A DNA stretch of 64,000 nt, taken from the NCBI GenBank assembly GCA_008632985.1, contig QPGO01000068.1, positions 1 to 64,000 on the forward strand, read 5' to 3'. The position numbers were made by a program, and so were the translations under genes. This DNA is from Psammoneis japonica. Lineage: Eukaryota. The notes below the pieces were generated by a model. That model had not been told where the DNA came from and did no database searches. It was given only the letters and a program-made list of their open reading frames with translations. Below are positions 9,165 to 58,400 of the stretch, piece by piece; position 1 is the first letter of the stretch, and the number at the start of each line of letters is the position of its first letter.

Positions 9165-9223
9165 CGATATATATCGACAGTTTGTGGCAACACTACATTC
9201 GAGAGTAGTAAGTGAGAGAAGCG

Positions 9224-14496: not shown

Positions 14497-14670
14497 CAAG
14501 ATCGATTTGGTAAGATTGATTTGGTAAGATTGGTTTGACAAGATTGAAGTCCAGAAGAAGTAGAAAAGCAGATCATAATTTAGCGAGAGTGAGAAAAGTG
14601 AAGACTATTAACTTTAGTTTTGTGTGCTACTGACAAGGTGTTAGTAGTGTCGGCATCTGGTTGTCCAACA
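14334..14670 (+). repeat. 3' LTR
   Basis: Direct repeat of 8828-9164. Confidence 0.97.
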
Positions 14671-24449: not shown

Positions 24450-26947
24450 CTATGGTAGTCTCCAAACGAGATTCTTGACAGGTTGAGGACCAACAGATAC
24501 AAAATCAGAAGGCATGGGGACTACTCTTTCCAGCTTGGCTCCTGGTATACCAACTTCTTCAAAGCCTTTCTTGCACATGCGAGCGAACTTGGTCACTGGA
24601 ATGCTTGCGCTGTTCGTTGTGGTCCACAGTAAACCACCTCGTTTCACTAACGGAGCTGCAAGTGCTACCAAACTAGACATATCATTCTTTACGCTCCACC
24701 TCTTCTTTTTCTTGCCAACACTTGTGCTAGGTGGATCCAGAATCACAATATCAAAAAGCTCTCCCCGCTTAGAAAGCCTCGCGAGCCAGTCAAAGCCTGT
24801 TGACACATCGAAAGCAACAACAAAACAGATAAGACAGACCAAAAGCTGCCTTCGGATGCTCAAGTCATTAGTGACTTACAGTCTCCGTATATACAATCGT
24901 GCTTGTCGAAATCAATGCCATTTGCTTTCATTTGCGGCTCTATTCTATCCAACCACTTCTTTTCCAAGTCAAGGCTGACAGTCGATGCTCCGGCAGTTGC
25001 GGCTGCGACGCTGAATGCACCGCAATGTGCAAAACAATTCAACAACCGTGTATCCGCATTACAATTCCTTGCTAACCATGCTCGTTGAGGTCGTTGATCT
25101 AAGAAGATACCGGTGGACAAATCCCGTTCCAGGGATACATGGTAGGTAATCCCGTTCTCTAGCACTGGCAATACATCCGGAGCAGCTTGGCCCTCGAGCA
25201 ACTGGGGTCGCATATCCGTCCGTGACCCCATTGAGCTACGACTCTGATGAGCAGGCAAGTAATAAACTCCAGCAGTGTTTCCGTCATGAATGGAAGGGAG
25301 TGGCCCCCTTGTGGCCTTCTCATCATGCTGTACTAAAAGAAAATTGTCATACCTGTCGACCGTCCAACCAGGAACACCGTCGCCATCGCCATTTATCTCT
25401 CGATACGCGTTTGTGAGTGGATTCTCTTTTAGCTCCGAACGCCCTAAGAAAGACCCCTTTTTATACTCATGGTGGTTTCTCCTGTCAGACAACACGCGAA
25501 TATCATCGGGTAGAGATTTGGTCTCCGTTTGCACAGTGTCATCATGGACAAGGCTCGAAACTGACAATGCGTTGCAGTGTACCAATCTTCGAGAAGCGCG
25601 TCGGTCCAACGGGTTGGCTAGTGGATCACCACGTATTCCATCCAAGAACTGTGCCTGGCATGGTTGGACAACGCTAGTACATGTCGAGAACCGCTCCAAC
25701 AAGGTAAGCGCAACGGTAAGCACAGTGTCATCCCCACGACCCTTTCGAAGTTTGGAAACAATATCCATTTTCACAAGCTCTTTCGGAAAGGTCGGTGCAT
25801 CTTTAGTCTTCGCCTTGGGAGTGAAACACTTCCCGTTTCCTACAACGGCAATATATTTGGCGTAGTCAATATACAAATTGTCGACGTTTTTCTTTGGGCA
25901 AATCACAACGAGCCCCGTGTCGTCGACATTGGTCGCTCCTGCGACGGCAGTCCAAAACTTGCCCCCGCGGATCGGTGCCCCTTCTTCCGCCTTTATATCT
26001 TTGAGCCACGACACAACCGAAGGGCGTGTTGGAGAATCAAAAGAGGCAACACCATCAACATTTTGCTTGTTTGATGGAGCACTACGTCTTTGGGGAGAAG
26101 TTGGTTCGGGAGCTACTCCAAACAATCCCTGAAGACCTCCTTCTGCTTCAAACTCTGCAATCTCTGCCGGCGTCATAGCCTCCAAAATATCCATTTCATT
26201 GAACTCAATCATACCCACGGATCCATCTTCATCTCTCACCTTTAGCCGTGTAGTGTACTGTTGCTCGTCTTCTTCTTCCTCCTTTTCTTCTATCGGTAGA
26301 TCTTCTGCGCCACTTGCTTCTCTCGCCTCAGCTTCTTCGGGAACATTCTTTTTCTTTTTCTTTGCCCCTACATTACCCCCTAAGATCGACCAGCCCGCTG
26401 GCTTGTTGATAACATACGCTACTGAAGCGCTTGTTCCTACCTCGTCTCCCACTCGAACTTGTCCCACAATCTCCGGCTCAACATCTGATACGACCGAATC
26501 ACAGTGTTGAGCTGCTGGGTTTACAAGTCCCAAGCTTCTCGCCAGATAAACGGGGTTATTCTCGTCCACACGAGGATTCACAGGTTCACCATTGTTTCTT
26601 CGCTGAGAGGCATAGACATATTTTTGTTTTGGGGCAACAGCTCGTTTCCGAGTTCTCCTGCTCTTTTTCTTGGGTGCTTCTTGTTGAAACGCCTCTGGAT
26701 TTTTCATCATTTTATCCATCAACTCACGAACAGTAACGTCTTGTGCCTTCTTTTTACTTTTTGCATTCAGGCAACAAGAAGTTGGCGTGATTCCCACTGT
26801 TCTCCATGGCGAATGACGTCTTTTTAACAGAGGACAAAACGTCGGGATTGTACCCGTGCTACTGCTCGAAGCGACAGACAGCGCTAAAAAAAGAAACGAG
26901 AAACCGATAAAACGGGAGGAATGTGAACCTTGGATGCCTTTTCTCAT
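24450..26947 (-). CDS. SAM-dependent RNA methyltransferase (RlmI/RlmK-like) with an N-terminal degenerate pseudouridine-synthase-like region; exons 26947-24880 and 24796-24450
   Basis: PGWTVDRY, STGIFLDQRPQR, LLNCFAHCGAFSV, SLDL, FDIVILDPP; GT-AG intron 24879-24797 gives YGDC|FDWL; N-terminal signal-like peptide. Confidence 0.88.
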
Positions 26948-27149
26948 TTCTCTTCGTTCTTTTTAAATAGTACGGGGTAAATCTCGCTGATGTGGATGTT
27001 GGAAGGTGAGTGGTAGGGTCGGTGAGATGAGCTTTAAGCTGAGATGATGGGTGATTTTGGAATTTGTGAGATTTCAAAGAAACACAAATATATTCAATGG
27101 CTGATGCCGATCGGACGGGTGGAAAGACGTCGCGCTGGCGTCGCCACGC

Positions 27150-29765
27150 ACGCACGCACGCCGGCTCAAAGCAACCAGTCGGGAAGCATGTTCTTGCTTC
27201 TTGCCGTTTCGTTGCATTGTCTCCTTGAACGCATCAAACGAACGCACAGTCGATGTTCCGGTCGGTGTCACTGTCACTCCATGAGTCGATCTGCCAATCA
27301 ACCTGCTGGTCTCTGCCACTTTCACAACAAAAAACAGAGCTTTTTTTGTTCTGCTGCACAGAAAACAAGTGGGAAAACTGGCAGGGAGACTGGTCAGTTG
27401 ACAGGGAGATTGCCTGGTTGGCTGGTCAGTCCCATCAACAGAAAACAAAAAGCATCAATCAGAGAGATGTTTGCCAAAAAAGGTCCTTTTCCAGTCGTGC
27501 TTGTGCCATGTGTTGCTGCTTTTGAGTGCCACCGTTTGCAACAAAGTCAAACTCCTGGCTTCCCTCTTGGCAAAGAAAAGTTCAACGACAGACCCCAGGA
27601 TCAGGGAGCGCTGCTGACAAGCCTTTGGCAAAGAAACTTTGCAGCAAAAGGAGAGTGCTGAAATCTCAACCTCATGCAAGCATGCAGAGCTGGTTGATTT
27701 GGCACTGGAAGTTGTGAGCATCAGCATCTTTCACAAACGCAGAGGGAGCACTGGCAATGGGTGCAACGGTCTTTGCCACAACATCAACCAAGCTGGGGTG
27801 AGAGCTCCAACTGGAGTGCCATCTGTGTTTCAACCACAAGCATGCCACAGCCAAGCAAAACTTTGGACAGAGCTGTTGAATTTGCTTGACTCTTGTCACT
27901 CCCCATCCATGGTCATGTGGAGTTTGCAGAAGTTGTGCAGTGTCTTTTGCAACAGAAAATCTCACAACCAAGCTGATTTCCCATGCAGCAAACATTGATG
28001 ATGTTGGTTGATGCCAGCCATGGAACAGGAAACAATGTCTCAAAACATGGGCCAACCGTTGATGGCAACATTGACAAAATGGCAAGGAGATTCCTCAGCC
28101 TGCCTTGTGGAATCATCTTGTGTGACAAAGCATCAAACATCAAACCACAGTGCAAATGTGCAAGCCAACAAAGATGTGCTTCCTGCACTTCCAAAAACTC
28201 TGTCAAGAAAAGAGTTTCAGATGCCCCTCATGCAGAGGGTGCCAGTGATGGGTGGGCCACTGCATCCACAGTTGCTTTGCTCATGCTCTGTCCATGGACA
28301 GAGTGGCGATGACATGTCGACTGATGCCACAACCAAACATCCCACACACAGAAAACAACTGACTGCTTGCTCTTCCCCTGGGCATGAAGAGGTGGTGGAG
28401 TCCTGAACCACCAAGTTCCCAAAGCTGTCTGTTTTGAAGAACTCCAAGACTGTGCCTCATCATGCCACCTGCACATGCTGAGTGAACCGGGGAGGTCAAA
28501 GAACATGCCCATGACAAGGGACGAGCAACAGAGCCTGCCCAAGGTTTGTTGATTGTTTGCAAACAATGCACTTTTCAACCTTTGCACAGGGAGAGAGCAG
28601 CTCTTCTGAAGCTCCAGATGAAGGTGGGTGGCTTGGTGGGCACTTTCCCCAAAGTGCGTGGTGCTCCTGCTCAGGACTTTGTTGTTTTGGTCCTTTCACA
28701 AAGAAACATCATGGTCTCAGGAAGAGGAGCTACAATGGCAACTTGAAGCACTGGGTGAGCCTTGCAGGGAAGAACCAGCCTCACAAGAAGGGCAAGCCTT
28801 GCCATGGTGAAGTGGCACAAGGCACAATTTGCGCAATGTGGGCCAGCCAACATGCAGCATGCACCCATGCTGGCCAACTCAGCAAGCTCATGCATTGGCC
28901 TCTGGCATGTGGCACAGTGCAGCACTGTTCACATGCACCTGGGAAGCATGATCCAGAGCCAAGAAGGGTGCGGCTCTTTGATTCAGGTGAGTTCAGAGGA
29001 GTGCTGGGTGCATCGTCAGTGCAGCCTGTCATGATGATGACACATCACTCATGGATGATGCATGACACCCTGATTTTTGCACAATCCACAATGCAAATGG
29101 CAGTGGTTTTGATGTGATGCAAAATCTGAGTGTGTGAACAGGAGCTTGGCAAAAGATTGCCTGTTTGCACGAATCCACTTTTTCTGGAATGAGCTGGTGG
29201 CTGACAACTTTTCACAACAGCAGCACTTCTGCAATGTGTCTGCATTTTTTGTTCCCTGTTGGGTGCACAGTGCGCACAGCAATGTTGCTCTTGTGCAGCG
29301 TGCAAGGTTGAGAATCTGCAAGAACCAAGGTTGCAACATGTTGGTGGGGCCGACACCAACTGCGAAGTGCTGGCCATGAAGAAGTGGGCTCAGCCACTCC
29401 TCTTCAGAACCAGCCAAAACACCACTCCTCCTCTCCCACCCCAACCACCTTGGACCACTGCCACATCCTCTCAAAACCCTTCTGCACTCACTGCTGCCTG
29501 CTCTCATTTGCTCCAACCACCCCAAGGCGGCCTCTTCCCCCTTCTTGCTCTCTCGCCACCTGGAAGTGAGTCTCCTCCTCCTCCCTCTTCGGCACTGCCT
29601 GTCGTGCTGCAACAGCACCTTCCCAGTGGGGCCTCCAAAGCCTCAGCTGCACCATCACCAATGCACTCTAGAGCAGCAAAGCTCTCCCGCTGCACTCAAA
29701 AACTTGATTCCAAACTCTCTGGCTGTCCCATCCGCCACCCAACCCGCACATACAGTCAACCACCC
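27150..29765. mobile_element. TpA/CpG-depleted degenerate insertion between two divergently transcribed genes; family not identified
   Basis: Abrupt compositional switch at both ends; no credible protein; separates the MTase start (26947, -) from the helicase start (29910, +). Confidence 0.5.
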
Positions 29766-29909
29766 CCCGGATAGATGCGTGGCGCGCGACTTCGTCACTA
29801 AAACTTTGGTTTTGAGTGAACAAAAAAACGCAAGTGTGTTTGCCGATGATGATGGACATTCGAACACCCGTCCAAGACTGTATCGTGTAGTTTCGTATTA
29901 TTTGGTTGA

Positions 29910-32900
29910 ATGTCACAAGATAACTTCACGTCCGCGTATAGAAGGACTCATAACGGGGGGCGCAAGTTCATCGGAGGAGCGGCTGCTGCTCGATTGAATG
30001 CCAAGAAGAGAGCCAAGGCCACACGGATATTGCGACCGGACGAGGTTTTAAGGTCAAGGGAAACACTACCAGCGTCCTTGAATGCATTTGAGAGATTTTT
30101 CGCTGGTATCCTTCGGTCTGAACCTGCTGAGTATACAAGGGGGGAAGACAAAGAAGTATGGAGAGTGATGTGCAAACGCCTCGGGCTGCCGGTTCCAGCT
30201 GAACCTCTTCCGGACTCCTACGACAGGCCAAGAGATCATTTTGCAAATCGCGCTTCGTTGGTGATAGAAGAATCGAGACAGGCTGTGGCAGATGGTCTGA
30301 GTTTGCTGGCAAAGCACTATCGAGGTAGGGGGCAGAGACAACGACGAAAAGGTGGAAACAAACCTGATGACGTTTCTTCGTGGCAGACTCTTGTGTCCAT
30401 GCAATTGGTCTTGTCCGGCATGGAGCATAAGAAATCTGGACATTCCATACTAACATATCACAAAGAAAATGGTGCTTTCACGAGGGATGAAATGCTTTCG
30501 CTTCGTCACGGTACAGTTATGGCTTGTCTGAATGAAGAGCTGTCACCGACAATCGAGAATGCTGTCCTTGGAACCGTTGTACCACAAAGTCGGGACGAAA
30601 TGATCGAATCACACTCCTTCTCTGTCATGGTATTCAAGTTAATGAAGAAGACGGTGGACGAGAAATGGAATCTGACTGCCATTACTTCGCTGCTTTCTGA
30701 GCAGAGAAGATTAGAAGCATGTACAACCCAAATGTCCACTCCTGTGCCCTTTTTGTTCCATCTTCTTGGTGGAAAGAAGTCAACACATTTTCGTTTCCAC
30801 GAAGACGATGATGGAATGACACACGCCGTGAAAGCCGAAGATCGGACGTCTCATGACCATGACATGCCAGAGATCATAGACTTGGATTCTACCTTTTGCC
30901 TGCCTCGTTTGAATACAATGCAGGATGAAGCTGCGAATTCTTTTCTTGCATCAAAAGATGAAACGATTACACTTGTTCAAGGTCCACCTGGTACAGGGAA
31001 AACGACGTTGTTAACCTCTGTGATATGCCGCTATATCATGGAGTCCCAAAACCTGGAACACGTCAAACGATGCCTTATGGTATGTGCCCCAACCAACAAA
31101 GCAATAACTGTGCTTTGCAGCAGGTTTTTGGATTCCTTCGTCGACGAATCGTTTCCCTGTAACGCAGTCTTAATAGGAGACGATGACAAACTACTCGAAG
31201 ACGAGCGTGAAAGCACAAGAAATGGTAGAGGATCTCCGTCCAAACTTCGGAGCATCTTTCTCTACACGTACATCGATACCGTCGAATCTGACTACTTGTA
31301 CACAAAGAGAACTTTGATGAGGTGGGATCAGAAGAGCAAGCCTGTCTTGCAGCGACTACTGAAGATTGCACGGCGTCTAAAGAACCGACTGGACAGAACA
31401 ATCTCCGATCCACAAGTACTTGAGAGGGCATCGAGAATCGTAACACTGTTGGGCGACTTGCTAAGTCCAGAAAGGGGCATTCGACGTGTTGAGCTCCTCG
31501 ATGCACTGGACTTTGTCCTCCACGCCATTGCAGGATGGAAGCGTGAGAGCATCTGGCAAGAGATTCTCCAGAATGCGGATGTCATATTTTGCACCCTAGC
31601 CAGTGCGGGGGCTTCTATCCTGAAAAAAGCTGTCAATGACGTCGATGATCTCATCGTCGACGAAGCTGCTGCAGCCACAGAACCAGAAATGTATATTCCT
31701 TTTCAGTATCGTCCTAAGCGATTGCTGGCAGTTGGTGATCCTAAACAGTTACCTGCAACCATAACAAGTCGCATCGCACAGGAGCTTGGACTATCCAAGA
31801 GCCTGCACGAAAGACTTATGTACGGATGCGGACATGATCACATAATGCTCGACACGCAGTATCGAATGTCACCAGCGTTGAGTCAGTTTCCGTCAAAACA
31901 CTTCTACGAAGGGAAATTGATCAATGCTTCGAACGTTGTTTCTGTAAAGTACTCGAACAGTTACAAAATCTTGGGAGCTCCAGTCTACACAGTATACCAG
32001 ATCAATGGCAAAGAAAGGCACGGACGATCAGGATCGATGGAGAACGAGATGGAAGCTCGCGCGGTTGTGCAAATTGTTGAGTGCATGAAACGGGAATCTG
32101 AGAAATGTTCTAGAAACTGGTGTTCAAGTGACCGTCTTCGAATCATAACGTTTTATCAAGCACAGGTGGCACTGATCAAAAGGTTTTTGCGACAGCGAAA
32201 CCTTGGCGACGTTCTTGTAGCAACTGTCGATTCGAGTCAAGGCTGTGAAGCTGATTTCGTCATTGTATCCTTTGTCAGGAGTGAAGGACAGTCTGGAAGG
32301 AACTCAGTGGGTTTCCTGACCGACGAACGGCGACTTAATGTTTCAATCACACGAGCAAAATACCAGATAGTTTGTGTTGGAAATATACATCGGATGTCAG
32401 AACTGCCAGACGGGAGGGCAGACACCGTCAAGAATCTCGCACTGGATGCAATTGAGAGAGAGGCCGTCTTTTCATTTCCTCTCAATGGACTACCAAGTAG
32501 TATGCACGGGATTGAATTGATCAACGGGAACATAAAGGCTGAGCCAGTAGAGAGTACCGCTCCACCCATGGACAACGTCCCAACACGCAAACGACGGATT
32601 GATGCAAATGTCGATTCTCGAGAGCAGAAGCCTAATGCTCGACGTCCTCGATCGATAGAAATGTTCACAGCCAAAAAAGACGATGGTTACCTGGAGAGGA
32701 AAAAGAGAACAATCTCAAGGTCTGGGAGTAGCAGCAGTCAGCAGAGCAGCAGTGATAGTAGCGGTAGCAGTAGTATATCCGGAGACTCCTCCGATTCGGA
32801 TAGTAGCGGTAGCGATGAATCATGCACGGTTGCCTCGAGAGATAAGAGCACCACCTCGGACTCATCACATGGAAAAGTAGTGGAAGAATTGATGCCCCTT

Positions 32901-33041
32901 GATCCTCCCGCAACTGATACAAGTCGGATGCTGGAATTGGAAGACCCCGTCGATGCCAATCAATCTGACTCGAAAGCTAGGCCAGATGCCCCAGGGAATC
33001 ATATGTCGGGCGAACCGCCGTGCGTCCACGCAGGAAACTAG
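29910..33041 (+). CDS. SF1 helicase, Upf1/Sen1(senataxin)-like
   Basis: QGPPGTGKT, CAPTNKA, DEAA, GDPKQL, QYRM, TFYQAQ, TVDSSQGCE, RRLNVSITRAK; Ser-rich tail. Confidence 0.92.
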   Translation: MSQDNFTSAYRRTHNGGRKFIGGAAAARLNAKKRAKATRILRPDEVLRSRETLPASLNAFERFFAGILRSEPAEYTRGEDKEVWRVMCKRLGLPVPAEPLPDSYDRPRDHFANRASLVIEESRQAVADGLSLLAKHYRGRGQRQRRKGGNKPDDVSSWQTLVSMQLVLSGMEHKKSGHSILTYHKENGAFTRDEMLSLRHGTVMACLNEELSPTIENAVLGTVVPQSRDEMIESHSFSVMVFKLMKKTVDEKWNLTAITSLLSEQRRLEACTTQMSTPVPFLFHLLGGKKSTHFRFHEDDDGMTHAVKAEDRTSHDHDMPEIIDLDSTFCLPRLNTMQDEAANSFLASKDETITLVQGPPGTGKTTLLTSVICRYIMESQNLEHVKRCLMVCAPTNKAITVLCSRFLDSFVDESFPCNAVLIGDDDKLLEDERESTRNGRGSPSKLRSIFLYTYIDTVESDYLYTKRTLMRWDQKSKPVLQRLLKIARRLKNRLDRTISDPQVLERASRIVTLLGDLLSPERGIRRVELLDALDFVLHAIAGWKRESIWQEILQNADVIFCTLASAGASILKKAVNDVDDLIVDEAAAATEPEMYIPFQYRPKRLLAVGDPKQLPATITSRIAQELGLSKSLHERLMYGCGHDHIMLDTQYRMSPALSQFPSKHFYEGKLINASNVVSVKYSNSYKILGAPVYTVYQINGKERHGRSGSMENEMEARAVVQIVECMKRESEKCSRNWCSSDRLRIITFYQAQVALIKRFLRQRNLGDVLVATVDSSQGCEADFVIVSFVRSEGQSGRNSVGFLTDERRLNVSITRAKYQIVCVGNIHRMSELPDGRADTVKNLALDAIEREAVFSFPLNGLPSSMHGIELINGNIKAEPVESTAPPMDNVPTRKRRIDANVDSREQKPNARRPRSIEMFTAKKDDGYLERKKRTISRSGSSSSQQSSSDSSGSSSISGDSSDSDSSGSDESCTVASRDKSTTSDSSHGKVVEELMPLDPPATDTSRMLELEDPVDANQSDSKARPDAPGNHMSGEPPCVHAGN

Positions 33042-34659
33042 CTGTCTCTCCTCATCACCGGACGGGATTGAAAAAATGGGGACGACGAACCCGAGGGCTC
33101 CCATCCGACCTTCAGAAGTGATTGTACTATCTTCTTCTGAGAATAGCGAAGCGGAGGCGTAGCCGCTCGTGATGGATGCCCGAGCTGTTCGGTAGAGCTA
33201 TGCCACAGTAATGGCGAAGATGTGCATTGATCTACGCAGCAAAGACAACTTAGGATGCAGGTACGGTACAATAAGACTACTCTAGTTGTTTGCATGTAAG
33301 TTCCTGTACCCGCGCTTCTGGTCTACTCCCCTCGTCTTTACACGTCTCCTCTGGAGCATCCCTTTTCACTCTTCAAGAGACTCTCTAGAGGGTTGCCGGG
33401 ATTTGTCTTTGATGTTTCGCGGGCCTTGTCAACTGACGGGGTCGTCCCTGCCTGCGGCTGTTCAGGAAGCTCAGGAAGGCCACTTCCCGCGCCATTCGAT
33501 GTTCGCGCCATGTTCGTGCTTGTTTTTGGCTGGAGACTGCCTGACCATGCAAAGCTCTTCTGATGCAACACCATCGACTTTCTCGTGGTAAAAAAATCCT
33601 TGCGACTGTTGACGTGCTGAGGTCAAATGAAGACTGGCAAGTTGAACACTGGAGCAAAATGGGCAGGAAAAACTTTGCAGAGTCTTCTGCATCTGCATCA
33701 TCAAGTGACTCTGTGATCTGCAAACAGCAGGACAAGAAGCAGGCACACAAATGTGCTGCAACACAGCAGAATGACTGAGTCCCTGCCACTCTCACTCTCC
33801 ATTGTTGAGATTCCACAAGTCCTGATGAATCTTGTCCATTCCAGGTGCAGAGTGTTGATGATCGTGAAGAATGGGAAGGTTCCTCAGATGACATTGCTGC
33901 CAACATTGATGTCCTGAACTCTCACCTCAACCCTCTCATCACAGTCCTCCATGCAAAGCAGTGCAGAAGCAAGTTGTTGACTGCAATGAGCAAAAGCATG
34001 AACACACACGGAACTCCCCCAAACATCCATGAAATGGCCATGATCATGGTCATGCTGGAAACCGGCATTGCAAAAGACAAGGCAGATTGTCCAGAAAGGT
34101 TTGAGATTGTTGGTGATGCCAGCGCTGGGGCAAGGCAGTGGAGGACAACCAAGGAAGCAAAAGGGCAGCCATGGAGGATGGTTGACAAAGGGACTGGGAA
34201 GGCACCATTGGCTGGTGGAGTGGGAGAAGCGTGCATGTGAGCACTGCATGAAAATCATCGTGCCAACAACAAAGCACACCCAGACTGCTTCAGCTTCCAA
34301 GAAGCTCTTGCCATGCCAGCAAGCAAAAAGACAGGGAAGCAAAAAGCTGTCATTTTGCCACTGGAAACTTTCAACTTGGTGGCAAACATCCCTGAAACCA
34401 ACATGGAGGAAGTTTGGCAGCTTTGTCTTGTGAGTGCAAAAACAGTGTGCTCAGTTTGCAAACTGTGCGCAATGAAAGTGTTGAAAAACAATGAAGACAA
34501 CATGTCATTTGTCATGACAGCACTGCTTCACAAGAAAACATGCTTTCAAACCCCACAAGCATCACATGACAAGTTGTGCAACATTGCAAAATGTGTTTTG
34601 ACACATGCAAAGTTTTTGCCCTCCTTTGTCACAAGAAAGCAGGGAGCCAGAGTCACACG

Positions 34660-35395
34660 ACTTTGTCCCACAATCTCTGGTCAACATCTGATGTCGCTGC
34701 ATGACAACATTGAGCTGCTGGGTTTGCAAGTCCCAAGCTTCTGACCAGATGAACCAGGTTGTTCTCATCCATCATGTGCTGAGTGAACACATGCTCGCCA
34801 CTGTGCCCTTGCTGAGAGGCGCAGACACATTTTCATTTTAGAGGAACACAGCTCATTTCTCCAAGTTCTCCTGCTCTTTTTCTTGGGTGCTTCTTGTTGA
34901 AATGTCTCTGGATTTTTCATTCTTTTTCCATCAATGCTTGCCAACCGTGCAAGCAACGGCCTTTCTTGCCCTCTTTTTGTGCTTGGGCAACAGCACCAAC
35001 TGTTCTCCATGGCAAATGGTGTCTTTTTGCACCAGAGGACAAAATGTTGGGATTGTTCCCATGCTGCAGCTTGAAGTGACAGACAGCACCACAAAAAGAA
35101 ATGAGAGACTGACAAATCGGGGGGGAAGGCATCAATCTTGGAAGCCTTTTCTCGTTTCTGTTTTTGCTCTGTTTGGCATGGGTGGAGGTTTTTGTTGTTG
35201 TTGGGTGCAAATCTTGCTGTTGCGATTGCATTGAGGCAGGGGATGTGGTGATGACCAGGTGTGTTGTGATGGTGGAGATGGATGTGAGAGATTTACTAGA
35301 GAGAGTGGGAAGAGAAGAAAAACACTCTCATGTGTGAACAGCTGATGGTGCCGATCGGACGGGAGGAAAGACGCGCGCCGGCGTCGCCACGCCGG
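34660..35395 (-). pseudogene. Hypermutated partial duplicate of the methyltransferase 5' end and promoter (26459-27163)
   Basis: Colinear similarity, e.g. TTGAGCTGCTGGGTTT[A/G]CAAGTCCCAAGCTTCT and GTTCTCCTGCTCTTTTTCTTGGGTGCTTCTTGTTGAAA; the peptide MKNPETFQQEAPKKKSRRT is still readable. Confidence 0.93.
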
Positions 35396-35503
35396 TTTAC
35401 CATGTGACGTCGATGTGACATGACCAATAAGTAAAAGTTTTCACGATCAACGCACAAATAAAATAAGGCTCACAGGAACTGCTGGCGGGACGTCGCATTG
35501 AAC

Positions 35504-36307
35504 ATGATGGCCATGCCGATCACGGCGACAAGCCGTCGTTCTACTTCTACCGACACCATGCCTCGAATCAACATAGGAACTCGAGCGGTTGGAAAAAATC
35601 TCGATGGCAAGAATGAAAAGAAAATGACGGAGGTTTTCCGACTAAAGAGCTGCATGCTGGTTCCAAACTTGAAAGATAGCCTGAGCAATCCTGACACTCC
35701 GGCCCGAAAGAGCAATACCAAGATCCACAAGTCGATACGATGGGCCTTTATTTACTCCAGAGAGTATGAAAGAGTCATAGGGGACCATCCTTGTAGTGAA
35801 GGTGTGCCGATAAGGTGAGATTCACGCATCGCGGAGAGACTACATTAGGTACTACTTTCAGCCCCCTGTCTTTGCGGCAGTGCGTTGCACACTCACATAT
35901 TTTTGCGTCACTTGATTCTTCGTCGCAGCATCGGTTGGAACTATGATGAAGAGCAAATCATCTCTATAGATCAGTTCGAGTCGTATCGCAGTCCGCGTTG
36001 TACTGAAATTGAATTGGTGATGAGTAGGGCAGATCGAGAAAAAATTCTGGTTGAAGAATATGGCTATTCTCGACAGGAAATATCGCACGCTGTCCGTGAT
36101 AACCAACACACCAAGAACAAACGACGGCAGACCATCAACAATCTTGGTCTTGTTGACAAATGTGAAGAGACAGTGGAACGAGCGACTCGCAAGGTCAAGA
36201 GGCTCGTTTCGAAACGCGAATCTGCTCGAGCCTGGGCAAAGCAACTAGAAAAGGAAGAACCACTAAGAAACCAACTTGCGGAAATGAGACTACAAATGAA
36301 GCAATGA
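35504..36307 (+). CDS. Uncharacterised protein with a 'REYERVIGDHP..GVPISIGW' domain; exons 35504-35814 and 35929-36307
   Basis: GT-AG intron 35815-35928 joins GVPI-S-IGWNY; same family as 17778-18701. Confidence 0.8.
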
Positions 36308-37189
36308 CAAAGAATATGCACAGAGTAATGGAACGTATCCGTAGGGACACGGAGGGAAGGGCTCAACGTCGCAACCTACCGACAAGTCCGTGTGTATACA
36401 GAATCCAAAATGAATACCATGAATAGAACTAAGCTAAAGTACAAGTAGGAGTGCGATGAACGGATCGACAGAGTAGTGCGTGTAGTAGCATCAACCCAGC
36501 TTGAGTGGTGGCTGTCAATCCAGGATACAACAGTTTGCAAATTAGGTTTCGACTCTTGGATCATGGTGTGCTTGTCTCTAGAACGGGTGAGCGATTTCCT
36601 GCCGCGCAGTGCTTCTCCGGCCGATTGAAACCCAAACAATGTTGTGTTTCTGGAAAGTCCTCACATTGGCATTCAAGCAATGTTGATTCAAGGCTTGTGT
36701 GGCTCAAAACGGCAATCAAGTCTTCATTGCCAGGAGCTTGCAAGTGACCAATCAGGAATGTGCCACTTCTGCGGCATTGTCTCAGTTTCAGGCTGTTTTC
36801 TTCAAGCAAGTTTTGGTGCTGTCATCATCTCTCCACTCAGGTGGCTCCAAACAGACACTGCTGGTCCCAAAATGTGGAAGAAGACAGCCTTGAGAGGCTA
36901 AAACCAATTGGTTGTTGGACACAACACAGCTGCTGTGGTGCATGCAAAACACTGCCACACACAATCCTCATTGTCAAAGCAGCCACACAAGTCAACACAA
37001 TTTGTCAAAACACAGCATGTTTGCTTTGGCTGCACAGGAACAGCCAACTGTCTGCAACATCATGTGCATTGTGAGAAATTGATTGCTGGTGCCAACTCAA
37101 TGGGGGGTCTCCATGGTGGCCAAGTGGCTGGCTGGGAATGTCTGCTGCTGCTGCCAATGGCAACAAAGTCAGCTTCCTTCCACAGGCAA

Positions 37190-37191
<2 letters not shown>

Positions 37192-37287
<96 letters not shown>
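37192..37287. repeat. (TG)n microsatellite running into an assembly gap
   Basis: Pure TG dinucleotide run of about 96 bp. Confidence 0.98.
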
Positions 37288-37447
37288 NNNNNNNNNNNNN
37301 NNNNNNNNNNNNNNNNNNNNNNNNNNNNNNNNNNNNNNNNNNNNNNNNNNNNNNNNNNNNNNNNNNNNNNNNNNNNNNNNNNNNNNNNNNNNNNNNNNNN
37401 NNNNNNNNNNNNNNNNNNNNNNNNNNNNNNNNNNNNNNNNNNNNNNN
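37288..37447. other. Assembly gap (160 N)
   Basis: Run of N. Confidence 1.
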
Positions 37448-39349
37448 CCCAAAAGAAAGCAGCCAAATGCTGGCTTTTCCCAGTGATGCTGTTGTGCAAT
37501 CTCTGTGGATGTCATTCAGGCAAGATGCTCTTTCAACACCTTTCACAGTCCACACACCCCAGTTCTGCAAAGCAACTTTGGCAGCACCAGACATTTCTCA
37601 GAGTGCAAGCACGCCCCACACCCATTGCTGCAGAGCTCTGCTGGATCTTCCTTTTTGCCAGCATGGCATTTTGAAATGGTGCCTGCACTTTGGCCAGCCG
37701 CTTGCACTTGTTTCAGCCGCTGGCACAAACACCACAGAGACTCACTGCACTTTTTTGTGTCTTTCTCAATGTGCAAAGAAAGCACCATGCATCACAATGC
37801 CTCTGGCTTTGCTCTGGCACTGCAACCCACAGCTTGTCACAGAGAGAAAACCAGCTGACATGAACCTTCCAAGGGCACTTGGGCTGACAAAGAGTTTGGC
37901 TGTTGCAGCAAAGAATTCACAGATTTTGAGTGAGCTTTGATGTGAGTTTCCAGCTGCAGGGCTGGGGCAGTGGGATGAATGGCAGCAGGTGGGGGGGGGG
38001 GGCTGTGCTGTGTGGCTGCTGACAAGCTCCAAGCATCACTCTCTCTCCTTGACACTGCAGGGCTTGACCACCCACCACCAGTGTGTTGGGTGATCCCTGC
38101 CCTTTCTCAGCCAGATTGGCTGGTTGGACAACAGGGTTGACAGGCAGAGATGGGCACACCTTGGGGCTGTGGTGCAGTGGTCTGTTTGCTTGCATCTTGC
38201 CAGTGTCTCATGCTGTCTCTTGTCAGCCAGTGTCTCATGCAATCTCTTGTTGCCTCACTCCAGCTGGCTGCCCAGCTGTCTGGCTGCAAAGCAGCCAGCT
38301 GCAGCAGTGGCTGCTTGCAGCCAACACCTGTGTGCAGCAGCTGCTTTTCTGTGATGCACTCAGGCAAAAATGCACCGCTTGCATTGGGCATGCCACCGGC
38401 CCAAAAACAAACTGTTTGGGCTTCCCCTTTTGTGAAGATGACCTTTGGCTCAAGAGACCGCCACAGAATGCACTGATGGGGATGGACAGACCAATGAGGA
38501 CTCGCTCCTCACCATTGAATAAAATGAGCACCGGCGGAGTCCACAGACAGTCTGGACAGGGGTCTTGGATGGAAGGTGGCATGGATGGACGAAAGCACTG
38601 CAAAACATGCGCAGAAACCATCATGCAAACAGACCACACCACTGTGATTTTCCTTGCATGTGGTGACACCCAAGTTCTGCAACGGCAAGCTTTTTGGGCT
38701 GGACAGTGGCTTGTGTTTGCACAACCCTTCTCAACGGACATCTGGAAAATGTTGTGGCTCTTGTTCAGAACTTGTTTTGCTCTTGTTGAGAATCCTGTGT
38801 TCTTGACAAGTGCTCATCAATTGTGCACACATTGATTTTAACAATTGTTTCAACATGCCAAGCAGGATTTAACACTTGAAATGAAAATGACTCTAATTCT
38901 TTATTCAATCTTGACAAGATTACGACCACAATGATTTTAAAATTATTCAGCTCACGTTCACAATTAATGCGACCTTCCAAGCAGGAAATGATTGTCAATG
39001 AAACTTCTCAACAAGGGTGCAATTATGACTGCTTTGCAACATTGTTCATTTCTGACAACTGCAACATTCATTCGTTGCATTGAGATGCTCGTACATTGGC
39101 TGTGTGTTTCTTGCAATGTGATTGTGCCAGCTGTGTTTCATCATTTCTGCAGTGAACGTATTTTTGCTTCCTGTTTCCTGCTCTTCCCTCCTTGGCTTTT
39201 TTCTGTCTCCTGCTGGTTCTCCCATGCCGCAGTGATGGCATGATGCTTCGCTCATTTCGCTGACCCTTGCATCCGCTCTCGCTTGCCATGCACAAAATCC
39301 CGTCATTCGTTCCGTGTCGTGACCTTGTCTCTTTTGCTTGTCATGCCAG

Positions 39350-39570
39350 ATTGCCAAAGCTTCACCTGCAAAGAAGAGAAAAGAGCTTGCAACAGATCAG
39401 AGCATTGCACATGCTTTGTTTTTGAGCGGGCTTGTCTTGACCACAACAGCGCTTCTGCTCACCTTTGCACACAACCATGTCTCTTTCATGTTTTGCACCA
39501 GTTTGCCAAAGCATTGCCTGCAAAGAAGAGAAAAGAGCATGCAACAGATGAGAGCATTGCATTGTTTTGA
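39350..39570. repeat. Short direct repeat pair (about 70 bp, spacing about 150 bp)
   Basis: TTGCCAAAGC..CCTGCAAAGAAGAGAAAAGAGC.TGCAACAGAT.AGAGCATTGCA occurs twice. Confidence 0.85.
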
Positions 39571-40069
39571 ATGTGCTTTGCTCACCTTTGTGTGGCCCCT
39601 GCAGGGCCATCTTCCCTTCCGTCTCCCTTTGCATGTCATCAACATCATGTCTGAGTTGAAAGATTGGCCAAAGCATCAGTTGTTTGCATTGTTGCCCAAA
39701 CTCCGTGCACTCACAGACTCAGTTCCTGCCTCTCTCTTGCTTTGTGTTCCGCATTGTCCTCCTCCCCCTGGTGCTCTTCTGTTGCCTTCCCTTGCTGCTG
39801 ATGTCATTGTCATGATGTTTGATGAGCCTTGTGTTTGGTGTTTTGTGTCTTGTGAGGAAATGATGGCTCGTGTTTTTGCAGCAATGTCGAGCCTGTCTGC
39901 CTGGTGATTCCTGTCAGCATCATTTTTCAAGTGACAATTTTGTTTTAAAATTCCATGCTCACATTCCGTTTTGAAGGTTTGAATGATTTGAAATGACTCA
40001 ATGAATCATCCAGTCATTTGGGTTTTACATGTGTGTCGGCAGTCGGTCAATTTCTCATCTTTCATTGTG

Positions 40070-40172
40070 TCAATGTGTTCTTGTTAAGATGCAAATTTTC
40101 ACAGTCTTGCTGCACAGTTTTCATCACATCAATGTGTTCTTGTTAAGATGCAAATTTTCACAGTCTTGCTGT
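40070..40172. repeat. Tandem duplication with a 59-bp period
   Basis: TCAATGTGTTCTTGTTAAGATGCAAATTTTCACAGTCTTGCTG at 40070 and 40129. Confidence 0.9.
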
Positions 40173-40554
40173 GCAGGTTGAGCTGGCAAATCTCAAGCTC
40201 AATCTCAGCCACAAAAGCTCAGCAGCAGGAGCCCTCAGAGAAACCAAGGCTCTGCTGCCGGAGCTGTTGCAGCACAGGCTGATGGTCCAAACCCAGCAAC
40301 TGCCACCACTGCTGCTGCCTTCACAATGACAAAGCCGCTGCCGACCATGTGAACGCAGGCCTGCGCCACTCTGCCTTCAGCCATTGCAATCTCATGCACT
40401 GGCACAAAGTTCCCATGATTGTTGTTGCATGCCCTGGCACCCAATGGAGTCTCCTCCCACAGCCATCCCAAGACAACTGGTCACTTGCACTGTCACACAG
40501 ATGGCTCAATGGCATCACATGTGCGTTGGCTGGACCAAAGAAGGCCCCAGTCCT

Positions 40555-42750
40555 TGAACCCCAAAATTCTGAAGTGAAACAACACCATGAGTGCACCCAC
40601 CAACCTGACAACTTTCATCAAACATCATTGGCTGTCTTCAGTGGACCCCAGGTGACACTTCAAGAGCCATGGTTGGGAGTTGCAAAGCCATCCTGGTTGA
40701 GCTGCAGCTTCTGTGTCACTTCACACACCATTGCCAGGGTGGGGCTTGCCCCCCAAATTCAAAAAGTGAAACAACACCATGAGTGGACCCACCCAACCTG
40801 ACAACTTTTGTCAAACATCATTGGCTGTCTTCAGTGGACCCCAGGTGACACTTTAAGAGCCGTGGTTGGGAGTTGCAAAGCCATCCTGGCTGAGCTGCAG
40901 CTTCTGTGTCACTTCACACACCACTGCCAGGGTGAGACTTGACTCCCAAATTCAAAAAGTGAAACAACACCATGAGCGCACCCACCCAACCAACAACTGT
41001 TGTCAAAAGCCATTGAGTGTCTTCTGCAGACCCCAGAGAACACTTTTCTCAGCCATGGTTGGGAGTTGCAAAGCCACCCTGGCTCAGCTGTGGCCCATGT
41101 CACTTCACAAATTGTCAGGGTGAGACTTGTGCCCCAAATTCTGAAGTGAAACAACATCATGAATGTGATGACCCACCAAACAACTGTTGTCAAACATCAT
41201 TGAATGTCTTCAGTGGACTCCAGACAACACTTTGAGAGCCATGGTTGGGAGTTTCAAAGCCACCTTGGCGCAACTCTGGCTCTGTGTCACTTCACAATTT
41301 CAGGGCGAGACTTGAGCCCCAATCTCTGAAGTGAGACAACATCATGAACACACCAACACACCAAACAACTGTTGTCAAACACCATTGAATGCATGCAGTG
41401 GACCCCAGGTGACACTTTAAGAGCAATGGCAGGGAGTGGCAAAGCCACCCTGGCTCAGCTGTGGCCCATGTCTCTTCACAAAATGTCAGGGTGAGACTTG
41501 ATTCCCAACTTCTGAAGTGAAACAGTGCCATGTGTGCACCCGCCCACCCAACAACTGTTGTCAAATGCCATTGAATGAATGCAGTGAACCCCAGGCAACA
41601 CTTTGAGAGCAATGGCAGGGAACGTCAAAGCCACCCTGGCTCAGCTGTGGCCCATGTCACTTCACAAATGTCAGGGTGAGACTTGAACCCCAAAATCAAA
41701 AGTGAAACAACATCATGAATGTGCCAATGCACCAAACAACTGTTGTCAAACACCATTGAATGTCTTTTGTGGACCCCAGGTGACACTTTAAGTGCCATGG
41801 CAGGGAGTTTCAAAGCCAACCTGCCTCAGCTGCAGCCCATGTCACTTCACAAAATGTCAGGGTGAGAGACTTGATTCCCAACTTCTGAAGTGAAACAACA
41901 CCATGTGTGCACCCACCCACCCAACAACTGTTGTCAAACACCATTGAATGTCTGAAATGGACCCCAGGCAACACTTTAAGAGCCATGGCCAGGAGCTTCA
42001 AAGCTGCCGTGGTGCAACTCTGGCTCTGTGTCACCTCACAATTTCAGGGTGAGACTTGAGCCCCAATTTCTGAAGTGAAACAACATCATGAACACGCCAA
42101 CACACCAAACAACTGTTGTCAAACACCATTGAATGCATGCAGTGGACCCCAGGTGACACTTTGAGAGCAATGGCAGGGAGCGGCAAAGCCACCCTGGCTC
42201 AGCTGTGGCCCATGTCACTTCACAAATGTCAGGGTGAGAGTTGAGCCCCAAAATCAAAAGTGAAACAACATCATGAATGTGCCAACGCACCTAACAACTG
42301 TTGTCAAACACCATTGAATGTCTTGTGTGGACCCCAGGTGACACTTTAAGTGCCATGGCAGGGAGTTTCAAAGCCACCCTGGCTCAGCTGCAGCCCATGA
42401 TGTCACTTCACAAAATGTCAGGGTGAGACTTGAGCCCCAAAATCAAAAGTGAAACAACATCATGAACGTGCCAACGCACCAAACAACTGTTGTCAAACAC
42501 CATTGAATGTCTTCTGTGGACCCCAGGCAACACTTTGAGTGCCATGGGAGGGAGTTTCAAAGCCAACCTGCCACAGCTGCAGCCCGTGTCACTTCAAAAA
42601 ATGTCAGGGTGAGACTTGAACCCCAACCTCTGAATTGAAACAACACCATGAGTGCACCCACCCAACCAACAACTGTTGTTCAAACATCATTGACTGTCTT
42701 TGGTGGACCCAAGGCAAACCTTGAAGAGCCATGGTTGGGAGTTGCATGGT
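40555..42750. repeat. Satellite-like tandem array, about 12 units of 185-193 bp
   Basis: Anchor GTGAAACAACA (or a variant) at 40574, 40766, 40959, 41146, 41331, 41517, 41702, 41890, 42075, 42260, 42449 and about 42636. Confidence 0.95.
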
Positions 42751-45700
42751 CCAAGTGCCACACTGACACAAGACAAGGCCTTTGCTTCCCGGCCATGGTT
42801 GGTGTTGCATTCTCTGGGACCGGATCAAGTCATCCAAGGCCACCCCAAGACAACAGAGCACTTGCACTGTCACACACATGGTTTTCTTGTGTTTGCAGGT
42901 GGGGTGGCTGGGCCAAGAAACCCAGTCATGTCAGAGAGACAAAGGGCTGCATGGACACAAGACAAAGCCTTTGCTTCCCAACCATTGTTGTTGTTGCATC
43001 CTCTGGGATCCACTGGAGTCCTCCAATGCCATCCCAAGACAGCTGCAAACCTCTTTTGCCACATCTGTGGGCATGGTGCTTTCACACCTTGTGCAGCTGG
43101 GCATCTTGTGTGGAGGAATCATGCAAGGGGCTGCTGCTGCTGCCCAAGACATGGCTCGCAGCTTCCCAAATCAAGATTGCAAAGACACCACACTTGGGTC
43201 AAGAACCCACTCAACAAATGCAGGCTGAGTGCATTTGGGGTGCATGTCATGCAGGCAGCAACTTGCACCAGTGTGCATTGGTTGATGGTGATGATGATGA
43301 TCTGGAGCACCACCACATGATCCATTTTAGTTTCTCAAGTGGCACTGGCCTGTGCATCATGCACCACCACCACCCAGCAAGTTTGTTGCTCCAACTGGAG
43401 ACACCAGCAAGACATGTCATCAAACTTTCCACCAGAGTGAACCCCTTGGAACTGAGGATGTGTGGCTGATGAACTCTGGCCATTGTCTTCATTTGCAGTG
43501 ATGGCAAGAGGGAAGAAGATGAGACATTCTTTCCAGTCTCTGTCAGGACAAGGCATGAACCCGCAAGCAAGAACACTGTGACATTGCTTCCCAAATGACA
43601 TGTGACACAATCCCACCCTTAAAGAAAACTGGAATGTCAAGAGCCACAAAATCACACCTCCAAGGAACAGCAAAATGCCGTGAGTCTTTTAAATGGATCA
43701 CCCAACTTTTCATCGGACAATGCCAAAAACGCCGCGACGAGTCAAAAATCACAAATGATGATGGATCTCTTGCCATTTGCACAAAGTTGTGCTCTAGAGC
43801 AAAGCATTTCAGAACAGTGGCTCTCAATGGAGAGTCCATCCACACTCACAAACCCATGCACTGACCAACTGCACCATCGAGAAAAAACAGCACGTTGGCC
43901 AAAATTCCATTCACAACCTGGCCCACATTTCATCCAACACTCGCACCTCTCTAGACCCAACTAGATGCCAAAAGCTCCAAGATCCAATTCCCCAAACGAA
44001 CAAGTGTCATCAAAGGACTTGTGTCATGTAGAGTGTTGGCATGGAAAGGCCACTTTCAGCACTTGCAGCCCCAGACAATCATGCTGAAAACATGACAGGC
44101 AAAATGAAAATGTGAGTAGAACAACACACACAACAACAATCCATTGAGGCCACATGTCACAGTCTGCTCACTGTGTCACCTTTCCAAGGTAGTTCTGAGT
44201 CACCCCAGCAAATTTCATGACCTCAAATGCCACCAGCGGATCGTTGCATCCACGCATCCAAGAGCAGGCAAGGAGCCCGGCCACACAAGCATCCACTTCT
44301 CCGTTTTGCCCAGTGCAAAACCCAGTCTGGCAGTTGCACTGACAAGATCACCCAAAACAACGTGGGAGATGTTGTGTCTCAGATCATAAAGATGACACGA
44401 TTGTAGAGCAGGAAGAAAGGGTCAAAAAGGACCAGACACCTGCACGCATGAACGAGAGGCACAAAAAAAGGCCCTCGAGGTGTGCAAGTTTCATCAAAAC
44501 AAGGCCAATGCTCAAACAATTGCACTGTGCTCATGGGATTACCTTTTTTGGACTGTGGGAAGGCTGTCTGACAAATGACAACATTTGTTCCCATGGCGTG
44601 CACTTTCAAGAAATTGTTGTTGCCAAAAAATGACATGCTGTGATTGCGAGCTGACCAAGACCTTCAAAAACATGTCAAGCACGTCACAAATCCATGTTGA
44701 TGTGCACAACAGGTGCACCAAAGGATGCAGAGTGGGGTGAGGCACAAGGCTCCCAAACGGATGTGCTGTGGTGGTGCAAATGCCGCAAAAACAACACCAA
44801 CATCACAGATGCAACAATCAACTGCACAAGACAATCAATCCACCTGTGAAGCTTTGACAAAGCACAAACAACATCTTTGGTGAGCATGTGATTGGTGCAA
44901 AATGAGAAAACAAAGAAAGAACTTACCTCTGCAACGTTGTTGACATGGGTCATGTCAACATCATTGCGGCTGTTGGTGTCTGTGGTGTGGTGTGGTGTGG
45001 TGTGAAAAAATGTGCATCCACTGACCGCAAATCAGGCCATGCAGGCAAAAAATGGTCAAATTGTTTGTGACTTGACATTTGTAAAAATGCACAATTAACA
45101 ACTGGACAGAGTTAGCACATTTGTGACAATTTTGTTTGTCAACAAGTTTCACAATCAAATCATTTGTGAATGAGCGTTTCTGAGAATGCATGATCAACAA
45201 GTGAGAACATTGAAGATCGGTGGACAGAGACAGCACGCATGCAACAATTTTGTTTGTCATCAAGTTTCATTCTTGACAAGCACCAAAACATGTTAGAGAC
45301 AGATGTCACTTGGGGCAACCTTGGGCTGACCTGTGCGACATGTTGCAATGCTGCTGGTTTTCTAGACCTCCAGAAAAATTGCAACAACAAATGGATGGCC
45401 AATCTCTGGAAAAGTGGCACCATTGCATCCATGCAACTTGTGTCTGTTGCACCCAAATTTTAAAATGGAAAAGGCCAACGAAACACAGCACATCCAGGCT
45501 GATGCCAATTGTGGCCGCACTCTTCACCATGTGAGTTGGGGGGGGGCAGAGAGAAAGCCTCATTTGAAGCTGCATCAGATTCCAGCTTTCACATCACAAA
45601 CAATTCTGGCTAATGCCGATTGCAGTGATGTCTCTGCTGGGTTGTTGCTCTCTGGATTGGTTGATGGCAAGATCTGTCTGGCTCTGCACGGTCGCACAAA

Positions 45701-53000: not shown

Positions 53001-53049
53001 CCGAGTGCTGTGTCAACTGTGTGCACATTTTCTTGCTACAACTCTCTTA

Positions 53050-58278: not shown

Positions 58279-58400
58279 ATCTTGGAGAATCAGCGATTTG
58301 TTCTGAGAAACATCAGAAGGTTCACCATCTTTGGGGTTTTTGAGATGGGCTTGAGGAGCAAAGGGAGGCGGCTAAAGAGGTGGCAAGAAGAACAGAAGAA

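Follow-up and report, generated by a model that had tools for sequence, protein, structure and literature searches.

The first 64,000 bases of contig QPGO01000068.1 from Psammoneis japonica (GenBank assembly GCA_008632985.1, forward strand), which make up the whole stretch analysed here and are referred to below as the window, are eukaryotic nuclear DNA with long open reading frames (ORFs) and few introns. The window includes an intact gene for an RlmI-like S-adenosylmethionine (SAM)-dependent rRNA methyltransferase, here called the parent, and, 8 kb away, a partial duplicate of this gene, here called the copy, that has lost its TA and nearly all of its CG dinucleotides. The copy lies in one of three tracts that are almost free of TA (tracts A, B and C in Table 1). 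As judged by spliced contigs from sequencing run X2, the parent gene runs on beyond an 83-nt GT..AG intron at 24796-24878. The parent protein has 170 homologues; among the matches listed, the best is 65% identical, and those with named hosts are from Cylindrotheca, Nitzschia, Pseudo-nitzschia and Fistulifera, all of them pennate diatoms.

Table 1. Coordinates of the features discussed in the text (TRF, Tandem Repeats Finder; LTR, long terminal repeat).
Feature	Position	Strand	Details
Parent gene, intact; RlmI-like SAM-dependent rRNA methyltransferase	24860..26947	-	695-codon ORF; Pfam PF10672, E=1e-12
Duplicated portion of the parent	26450..27149	-	Codons 1-166 and ~200 bp upstream
Hypermutated pseudogene copy, portion inside tract B	34654..35340	-	0/18 TA and 2/27 CG kept
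Unmutated end of the duplicate, outside the tract	35341..35392	-	47/49 aligned bases identical; 9/9 CG kept
Tract A	27092..29668		TA-free save one TA at 28731; CG-poor core ~27290-29527
Tract B	33387..35293		TA only at 33589 and 34839; contains the copy; starts ~1.27 kb left of the homology
Tract C	36580..64000		Runs off the window end; TA observed/expected 0.00-0.14 per kb from 37 kb; CG depleted unevenly
Decayed ORF of an unnamed family, tract C	58404..59855	-	43 homologues at E<=0.001; P0122 is the best match (61% identity, 365 columns)
Decayed ORF, tract C	55017..56147	-	One homologue, P0165, 55% identical
185-bp satellite, tract C	40553..42743		11.7 copies (TRF); 371-bp higher-order period
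Superfamily-1 helicase gene, unmutated, between tracts A and B	29910..33041	+	Pfam AAA_11 and AAA_12; normal TA and CG
Small gene, unmutated, between tracts B and C	35498..36307	+	114-nt GT..AG intron at 35813-35926
Copia-type LTR retrotransposon, intact	8828..14670	+	zf-CCHC (ORF 1) and RVT_2 (ORF 2) above the Pfam cut-off

Local alignment of the duplicated portion of the parent with the copy (34654-35392) gave 537 matches, 138 mismatches and 89 gap columns, and BLASTN of the same pair matched 26450-26954 to 34654-35162 (E=2e-86) and 27100-27149 to 35341-35392 (E=2e-10). A 15-mer common to the ends of the parent and the copy occurs within the window only at 27105 and 35349, and two matches were obtained in 0 of 100 shuffles. 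The part of the copy inside the tract is 78% identical to the parent, and the copy has ACG in place of the start codon, three in-frame TGA stops and frame-breaking indels. All 11 of the word pairs quoted in an earlier account of this DNA, made from the letters alone (the sequence-only reading), could be read in the alignment.

The coding part of the duplicated parent portion includes 14 TA and 26 CG. Of the parent TA that could be aligned to the copy (n=18), none was kept, with 6 replaced by TG, 7 by CA, 3 by TT, 1 by GT and 1 by GG. Among 36 aligned CG, 11 were kept, 14 became TG, 6 became CA and 5 had another fate; however, nine of the 11 kept CG sit in the final 52 bp of the copy (35341-35392), outside the mutated tract, and inside the tract only 2 of 27 were kept while 20 of 27 were converted to TG or CA, which is the change that characterises the decay of CpG by deamination of 5-methylcytosine. 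Every other dinucleotide was retained in the copy at 50-78%, and overall retention was 403 of 642, from which the chance of keeping no TA at 18 sites is calculated as p ~2e-8. In a per-base test, A/T transitions were found at 14 of 37 bases inside TA and at 24 of 294 elsewhere (odds ratio 6.8, p=6e-6), and, over the whole alignment, C/G transitions at 22 of 72 bases inside CG and 17 of 224 elsewhere (5.4-fold enriched, p=3e-6); restriction of the CG context test to the tract gave p=2e-8. The pairwise count by dinucleotide that had been proposed as a check of the sequence-only reading thus confirmed that the losses are specific to TA and CG. The same reading had held that nearly every TA became TG or CA on both strands. 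The roughly equal involvement of the two strands stood (6 TG and 7 CA), as did the proportion in the well-aligned coding part (10 of 11), but over the full alignment only 13 of 18 TA had this fate.

The direction of these changes was established using 24 diatom orthologues as an outgroup, picked from the 120 homologues listed among those with a query cover of 83-100%, against which the copy was read codon by codon. Amino-acid differences between the parent and the copy were taken as informative when at least 12 orthologues were aligned. At 44 such differences, the parent residue was the commoner among the orthologues at 33, the copy residue at 5, and 6 were ties; hence, the copy is in the derived state. 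For example, Tyr110 and Tyr112 (both TAT; Tyr in 23/23 orthologues) are TGT and TGC in the copy, Arg100 (CGG; 23/23) is TGG, Arg116 (CGA; 22/23) is CAA, and Arg102 (CGA) has become a TGA stop. The five sites at which the copy agrees with the orthologues, such as Ser151, show that the parent, too, acquired changes after the duplication. An outgroup with TG and CA as the ancestral state, which would have reversed the direction proposed in the sequence-only reading, did not appear, as the 24 orthologues carry the residues of the intact gene. The alignment and the orthologues also agree with the earlier suggestion that host-derived sequence can be a substrate, given that the copy descends from a host methyltransferase gene.

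That reading had further stated that the functional gene kept its TA and CG, and this proved correct at sites where the protein sequence offers little constraint. In most codon families, a TA that spans a codon boundary (positions 3 and 1) can be lost by a silent T-to-C change. Such TA number 34 in the parent where 53.7 are expected, a ratio of 0.63, and the corresponding ratio (obtained by arithmetic) is 0.52-0.57 in four other host genes and 0.84 in the first ORF of the Copia element. In addition, the 202-bp non-coding leader of the parent includes 8 TA and 13 CG, whereas its 230-bp counterpart in the copy includes 2 TA. For comparison, observed/expected TA and CG in the non-ORF DNA of the gene-dense 1-27 kb region are 0.66 and 1.00. 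Because TA is kept at silent codon-boundary sites and at non-coding sites, the parent has been spared without the help of selection, and selection on the parent alone does not explain its sparing.

The loss of TA extends far beyond the copy. The three tracts together occupy ~31 kb of the 64 kb, and their edges are sharp to within tens of bases. TA makes up 0.004 of the dinucleotides in the tracts (31,433 bases) but 0.041 in normal DNA (31,952 bases), and CG makes up 0.018 and 0.056, respectively, whereas TG and CA together account for 0.220 in the tracts and 0.141 in normal DNA. The sum of the four pyrimidine-purine steps is accordingly constant (0.241 in the tracts and 0.238 in normal DNA), as would be expected if the changes were only transitions within such steps. 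Between 37 and 64 kb, observed/expected TG and CA both exceed 1.5 in most of the intervals scored and are 1.2-1.6 in some, at 53-59 kb. Outside the tracts, observed/expected TA is 0.5-0.9 in genes and spacers alike.

The tract edges do not follow those of the homology. Tract B overruns it by ~1.27 kb on the left and stops inside the duplicate on the right, and each tract edge lies a few hundred bases from a transcribed gene. All three tract-neighbouring genes, namely the parent, the helicase gene and the small gene, are covered by spliced, cDNA-like contigs from run X2, which is listed as 'DNA?' but behaves like cDNA. In the part of the window covered by this comparison, no X2 contig was found on the three tracts, and this was not counted as evidence of silence. 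A search of the window with the sequence collapsed to purines and pyrimidines, in which transitions are masked, recovered only the known duplicate, the satellite, the LTRs and low-complexity runs; likewise, tblastn of 13 proteins from the normal half against the tracts detected no decayed copy beyond the known duplicate, so that no partner of any tract was found within the 64-kb window. These observations lend indirect support to the suggestion of the sequence-only reading that targeting does not depend on pairing.

A total of 122 TA remain in the tracts, and their contexts are not random. TTAA is present 33 times in the tracts and 46 times in an equal length of normal DNA, while ATAT, ATAC, CTAT and ATAG are absent from the tracts and together occur 368 times in an equal length of normal DNA. 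These counts were described by a four-parameter additive model in which the A of either strand is lost independently of the other, with the base immediately 3' of it determining the rate. The fitted exponents for this base are T 3.09, C 1.76, G 0.94 and A 0.18, and the rate of TpA loss by 3' neighbour therefore follows the order TAT > TAC > TAG >> TAA. The two-strand model fits all 16 contexts (X2=11.5, 12 df, p=0.48) and is superior to a flat rate (likelihood-ratio chi-square 187.7, p=2e-40). The gain of TG is concentrated in TGC and TGT. No comparable rule was drawn for CG, though strand symmetry is lacking among the contexts of the CG that persist in the tracts (retention is 0.41 for TCGT and 0.23 for ACGA). 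As a side observation, 11 of the 122 residual TA are packed into 320 bp at 38839-39159, possibly a small island of tract C that has been mutated less.

Two decayed ORFs in tract C provide replicates that are independent of the methyltransferase duplicate. In the ORF at 58404-59855, the 19 aligned tyrosine (Tyr) residues of the best homologue, P0122, correspond to 10 cysteine (Cys; TGY), 4 histidine (His; CAY), 3 phenylalanine (Phe), 1 Tyr and 1 isoleucine (Ile), and in the ORF at 55017-56147 the 7 Tyr of P0165 correspond to 3 Cys, 2 His, 1 Phe and 1 valine (Val). Pooled, 26 Tyr have become 13 Cys, 6 His, 4 Phe, 1 Tyr, 1 Ile and 1 Val. The Tyr content of all 43 homologues of the ORF at 58404-59855 is ordinary (1.2-5.2%). 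Of the arginine (Arg) positions, 16 of 24 were kept in the first of these ORFs and 9 of 16 in the second. Pfam searches with 10 homologues from the tract-ORF families returned nothing relevant; a metagenome scan with P0122 detected no relative, and a word-index search returned P0122 alone. Further evidence came from the satellite in tract C, in which the monomers divide into CA and TG at 5 column pairs, as compared with 0-2 for each of seven control classes of double transition, and one column has TA in 5 monomers, TG in 4 and CA in 1. Given the 371-bp higher-order period, the monomers are however not independent of one another. At 37192-37447 lies a (TG)48 microsatellite, immediately followed by the only gap in the window, of 160 N.

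The loss of TpA is more complete than that of CpG, and the two could be separated in several ways. The TA-free zone outruns the CG-poor zone by ~40-230 bp, in the direction of the neighbouring gene, at four of the five edges (edge pairs 27092/27290, 29527/29669, 33387/33615 and 36580/36622). Between 52.5 and 60.5 kb, only 3-9 TA but 21-48 CG are present per kb, where ~56 CG is normal. Because this 8-kb region is TA-free but CG-rich, because Arg is kept in the decayed ORFs and because the TA-free zone is the wider, TpA loss is considered to be independent of CpG loss. The region may be a younger or an unmethylated target. It carries a row of four long minus-strand ORFs, and homologues from unnamed families were found for two of them.

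The tracts were reproduced by contigs assembled independently from DNA run X1 (~60x word depth) that tile 24000-37200, and a single X1 contig of 8,234 letters passes from the 5' end of the parent through tract A and the helicase gene into the copy. Between the main contigs and the window there are seven differences, all of which are transitions located in tracts, and none was found in ~8 kb of normal DNA. The sites are 28177 (TG/CG), 29337-8 (CA/TG), 34051-2 (CA/TG), 35067 (CA/TA), 35124 (GG/AG), 36848 (CA/TA) and 36943 (TG/CG), and six of the seven are interconversions of TA, CG or TG/CA. As 39% of the stretch compared is tract, the probability that all seven would fall in tracts by chance is ~0.001 (0.387^7). 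Sites 28923-4 and 34198 and the indels at 28906-28914, which came from short-match contigs of other loci, were left out of this count. The double CA/TG variants have the appearance to be expected if one ancestral TA or CG had been hit on one strand in one allele and on the other strand in the other.

Recognisable transposons in the window give no indication of having been affected. None of the 146 tract ORFs of at least 90 codons (stop to stop) had a Pfam match at the curated cut-off, and one match, at 19.6 bits, was at chance level. The only recognisable transposon is the Copia element, which, besides the domains listed in Table 1, has sub-threshold Pfam matches to Pol_BBD, SH3_retrovirus and rve_3. 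Its 337-bp LTRs are identical at 335 of 337 positions, and its TA and CG content is normal. The part of the sequence-only reading that named transposons as substrates hence finds no support within the window. The two LTR differences, at 9143 (TA in the 5' LTR and TG in the 3' LTR) and 9146 (CA versus CG), are both of the type seen in the tracts, but two sites prove nothing.

Several other features were recorded. The ~50-bp CG-rich element at 27100-27149 and 35341-35392 borders a tract at each of the two locations and is possibly a promoter or a boundary element. The small gene at 35498-36307 and the ORF at 17778-18752 are distantly related paralogues that share 25% identity in an alignment of 216 columns (E=2.6e-7). 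A tandem duplication of ~205 bp is present in unmutated normal DNA at 19536-20038 (97% identical over 298 bp), and a single ORF of 963 codons at 3439-6330 joins glutaredoxin, DUF4395, SLAC1-type anion channel and hemerythrin domains. No Rfam family was found in 26000-37200.

Taken together, the copy is probably a dead partial duplicate of a host gene that lies inside a domain subject to in-place hypermutation of DNA. In such a domain, TpA would be converted to TpG or CpA by a single transition on either strand, with the rate governed by the 3' neighbour of the A, and CpG would be converted to TpG or CpA as expected of 5-methylcytosine deamination, while the working parent, in its normal, transcribed neighbourhood, would remain untouched. 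The sparing of the parent in that neighbourhood points to targeting by position, i.e. by domain, and not by sequence origin or pairing; position rather than pairing or mere selection on the parent is thereby supported indirectly.

Some of the results sit less easily with this interpretation. The neighbour rule assumes that the tracts started out with the TA contexts of normal DNA. The strand that the rule predicts to be hit is only weakly borne out, at 8 of the 10 discriminating sites in the duplicate (one-sided p=0.055), and, for the 19 Tyr sites, the total that it gives, 12.9 Cys, agrees with the 13 observed, but single sites are not foreseen (9 right and 10 wrong). Run X1 may be the source of the assembly itself, and the variant sites are therefore likely to be alleles within a single sample rather than independent observations. 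At only 52 bp, the unmutated end of the duplicate is short and may be a conserved promoter element. In the coding part, ~13% of the sites outside TA and CG differ between the copy and the parent, with about as many transversions as transitions, which makes the copy an old pseudogene and no fresh duplicate; part of its divergence is thus ordinary pseudogene decay. Finally, that the domains correspond to silent, methylated chromatin is something we infer.

A process of this kind has been described once before, in the one report of TpA-specific genomic hypermutation that was found, a 2026 preprint on a rhizarian alga in the main text of which viral inserts are the only demonstrated targets. Among 231 new mutations that arose in mutation-accumulation lines of Bigelowiella natans within two viral inserts, one of a nucleocytoplasmic large DNA virus (NCLDV) and one of a virophage, 230 were A>G or T>C, the GC-biased changes were all on TpA, the mutation rate of the inserts was ~1000-fold above that of the genome, and 124 TpA-poor clusters were found genome-wide; an ADAT2-like adenine deaminase was proposed by the authors as a hypothesis (Mettrop et al., April 2026, bioRxiv 10.64898/2026.01.13.699255). 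As compared with the account in that main text, the present case is similar in the conversion of TpA to TpG or CpA according to strand by A>G/T>C transitions (13 of 18 TA in the copy, and 19 of 26 Tyr codons to TGY or CAY), in the restriction of the effect to discrete regions (three tracts here) with the rest of the DNA normal, and in the long-term loss of TpA with gain of CpA and TpG clustered along the genome. It differs in that the host groups with pennate diatoms and is not a chlorarachniophyte, in that depletion is near complete (TA observed/expected 0.06 over 31 kb, against 0.45 in the B. natans NCLDV insert), in that the substrates include a host-gene duplicate, and in that the tract ORFs have no recognisable viral or transposon domain. 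Moreover, CpG loss alongside TpA loss and a 3'-neighbour rule are visible here and not in the B. natans description; the words 'trinucleotide', 'context', 'CpG' and 'diatom' do not occur in the main text of the preprint, the supplementary site tables of which may hold neighbour information. The rate was measured in the B. natans lines and can only be deduced here from the sequence. No diatom report of TpA hypermutation was found in a literature search, and the terms 'TpA', 'hotspot' and 'transposable' do not occur in the available text of a mutation-accumulation paper on Phaeodactylum (PMC6604790).

Whether the TpA change is an enzymatic deamination of adenine on DNA, perhaps by a TadA/ADAT-like enzyme, is in our view close to evenly balanced. 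In the tRNA substrate of TadA, U33 precedes the edited A. Early TadA base editors are said to favour 'YAC', but no passage found in the literature search describes such a motif, and in PMC10953296 'YAC' denotes yeast artificial chromosomes. The motifs listed for known adenosine deaminases are 5'UAG for ADAR and 5'ACG, at anticodon position 34, for TadA/ADAT2 (PMC10661471, Table 1). As in both of these systems, where A-to-I is read as G, a T (or U) precedes the changed A here. The 3' G of the ADAR motif is however not preferred (T 3.09 > C 1.76 > G 0.94 >> A 0.18), and TAC is fast, which fits the A and then C of the TadA site, but TAT is faster. The order T>C>G>>A hence matches neither listed motif exactly, although it is nearer to that of TadA than to that of ADAR, and, unlike in the case of ADAR and TadA/ADAT2, it must be genomic DNA that is acted on here, in place.

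The alternative that survives best, though we consider it unlikely, accepts the same domain process but assigns the chemistry to thymine, such that the T in TpA is oxidised or modified (in the manner of 5-hydroxymethyl- or 5-formyl-uracil) and mispairs with G, leading to T>C. By symmetry, the sequence outcome would be identical and all counts fit equally well, with the neighbour rule then reading 5'-N-T-A with N in the order A > G > C >> T. Hydroxymethyluracil is found preferentially at TpA in dinoflagellate DNA, and both 5-methyl-CpG and TpA could be viewed as a 5-methylpyrimidine before a purine. Against this, nothing in the present data points to such a base or enzyme, and the sole experimental precedent was read by its authors, as a hypothesis, as adenine deamination.

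Repeat-induced point mutation (RIP), known from Neurospora and other fungi, converts CpA to TpA, is triggered by duplication and mutates both copies; it acts before meiosis and depends on a cytosine methyltransferase homologue of the RID type. The tracts resemble its products in that a dinucleotide-specific burst of transitions has inactivated non-essential DNA and left sharp-edged tracts with an AT/GC skew. That a homology-triggered process of this kind was set off by the duplication, with selection subsequently cleaning the parent, is nonetheless very improbable. The mutated segment is indeed a duplicate, and further copies elsewhere in the genome are conceivable, since the search for partners covered the 64-kb window. 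However, TA is destroyed instead of made (0.041 to 0.004 of dinucleotides), with the direction confirmed by the orthologues; the partner copy is unmutated and its silent-site and non-coding TA are at a normal level; the tract passes the homology by ~1.27 kb on one side and ends before it on the other; ~31 kb of tracts are without a partner in the window; and both Copia LTRs, themselves a repeat, are unmutated.

Methylation of CpG in the transposons of diatoms is known, as is its decay by 5-methylcytosine deamination. The conversion of CG in the copy and the fall of CG from 0.056 to 0.018 of dinucleotides are as this decay would produce, but it cannot account for the loss of TA, which is more complete and extends over a wider zone.

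Even less credit than to a RIP-like process can be given to the possibility that the copy is an edited retrocopy, formed by ADAR-like editing of double-stranded RNA followed by reverse transcription and insertion. A-to-G change after a 5' U is the habit of ADAR, whose listed motif is 5'UAG (PMC10661471, Table 1). However, the copy has the 5' end of the gene and DNA upstream of it but not the 3' end, the signature also covers flanking DNA with no homology to the gene, single-copy tract sites vary in place between the contigs and the assembly, and the 3' preference is T>C>G>>A and not G. Least credible of all is the view that no mutation took place, the tracts being either foreign or constrained DNA in which TA and CG are scarce by nature, or else an artefact that modified DNA caused in base calling: the lack of Pfam families among the tract ORFs does leave room for a foreign origin of tracts A and C, but the ancestor of the copy was a host gene with normal TA and CG, the homologues of two tract ORFs have a normal Tyr content, and a separate ~60x assembly of accurate reads agrees at all but a few sites. 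For tract B this view is contradicted by the alignment, by the 24 orthologues and by the independent contigs.

TA-free tracts lose TAA and TAG stops and have Tyr turned into Cys or His, so that long spurious ORFs are present in them and the ancestry of decayed genes is hidden from homology searches. Since host sequence serves as a substrate, what is recognised is not 'foreignness' in the sequence itself. The order TAT > TAC > TAG >> TAA, at roughly 17:10:5:1, is a quantitative rule that any candidate enzyme must reproduce. The kind of process itself had already been described once; new here are its presence in a diatom-like genome, a substrate that derives from a host gene, the neighbour rule and the finding that TpA loss can be separated from CpG decay. 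A broader proposal, offered tentatively and with the balance of probability against it, is that diatoms and chlorarachniophytes share a DNA editor linked to genome defence or heterochromatin, which would act at 5'-T-A-Y on either strand of any DNA in a silent domain, regardless of where that DNA came from and how many copies of it exist. The editor would work apart from CpG methylation, as a domain-guided adenine counterpart of RIP, and would still be active, a view suggested by the TA/CA and CA/TG variants seen at tract sites of single copy. Pennate diatoms are a major group of marine primary producers, and, if the proposal is true, the shared editor would be widespread in the stramenopile-alveolate-rhizarian (SAR) lineages.

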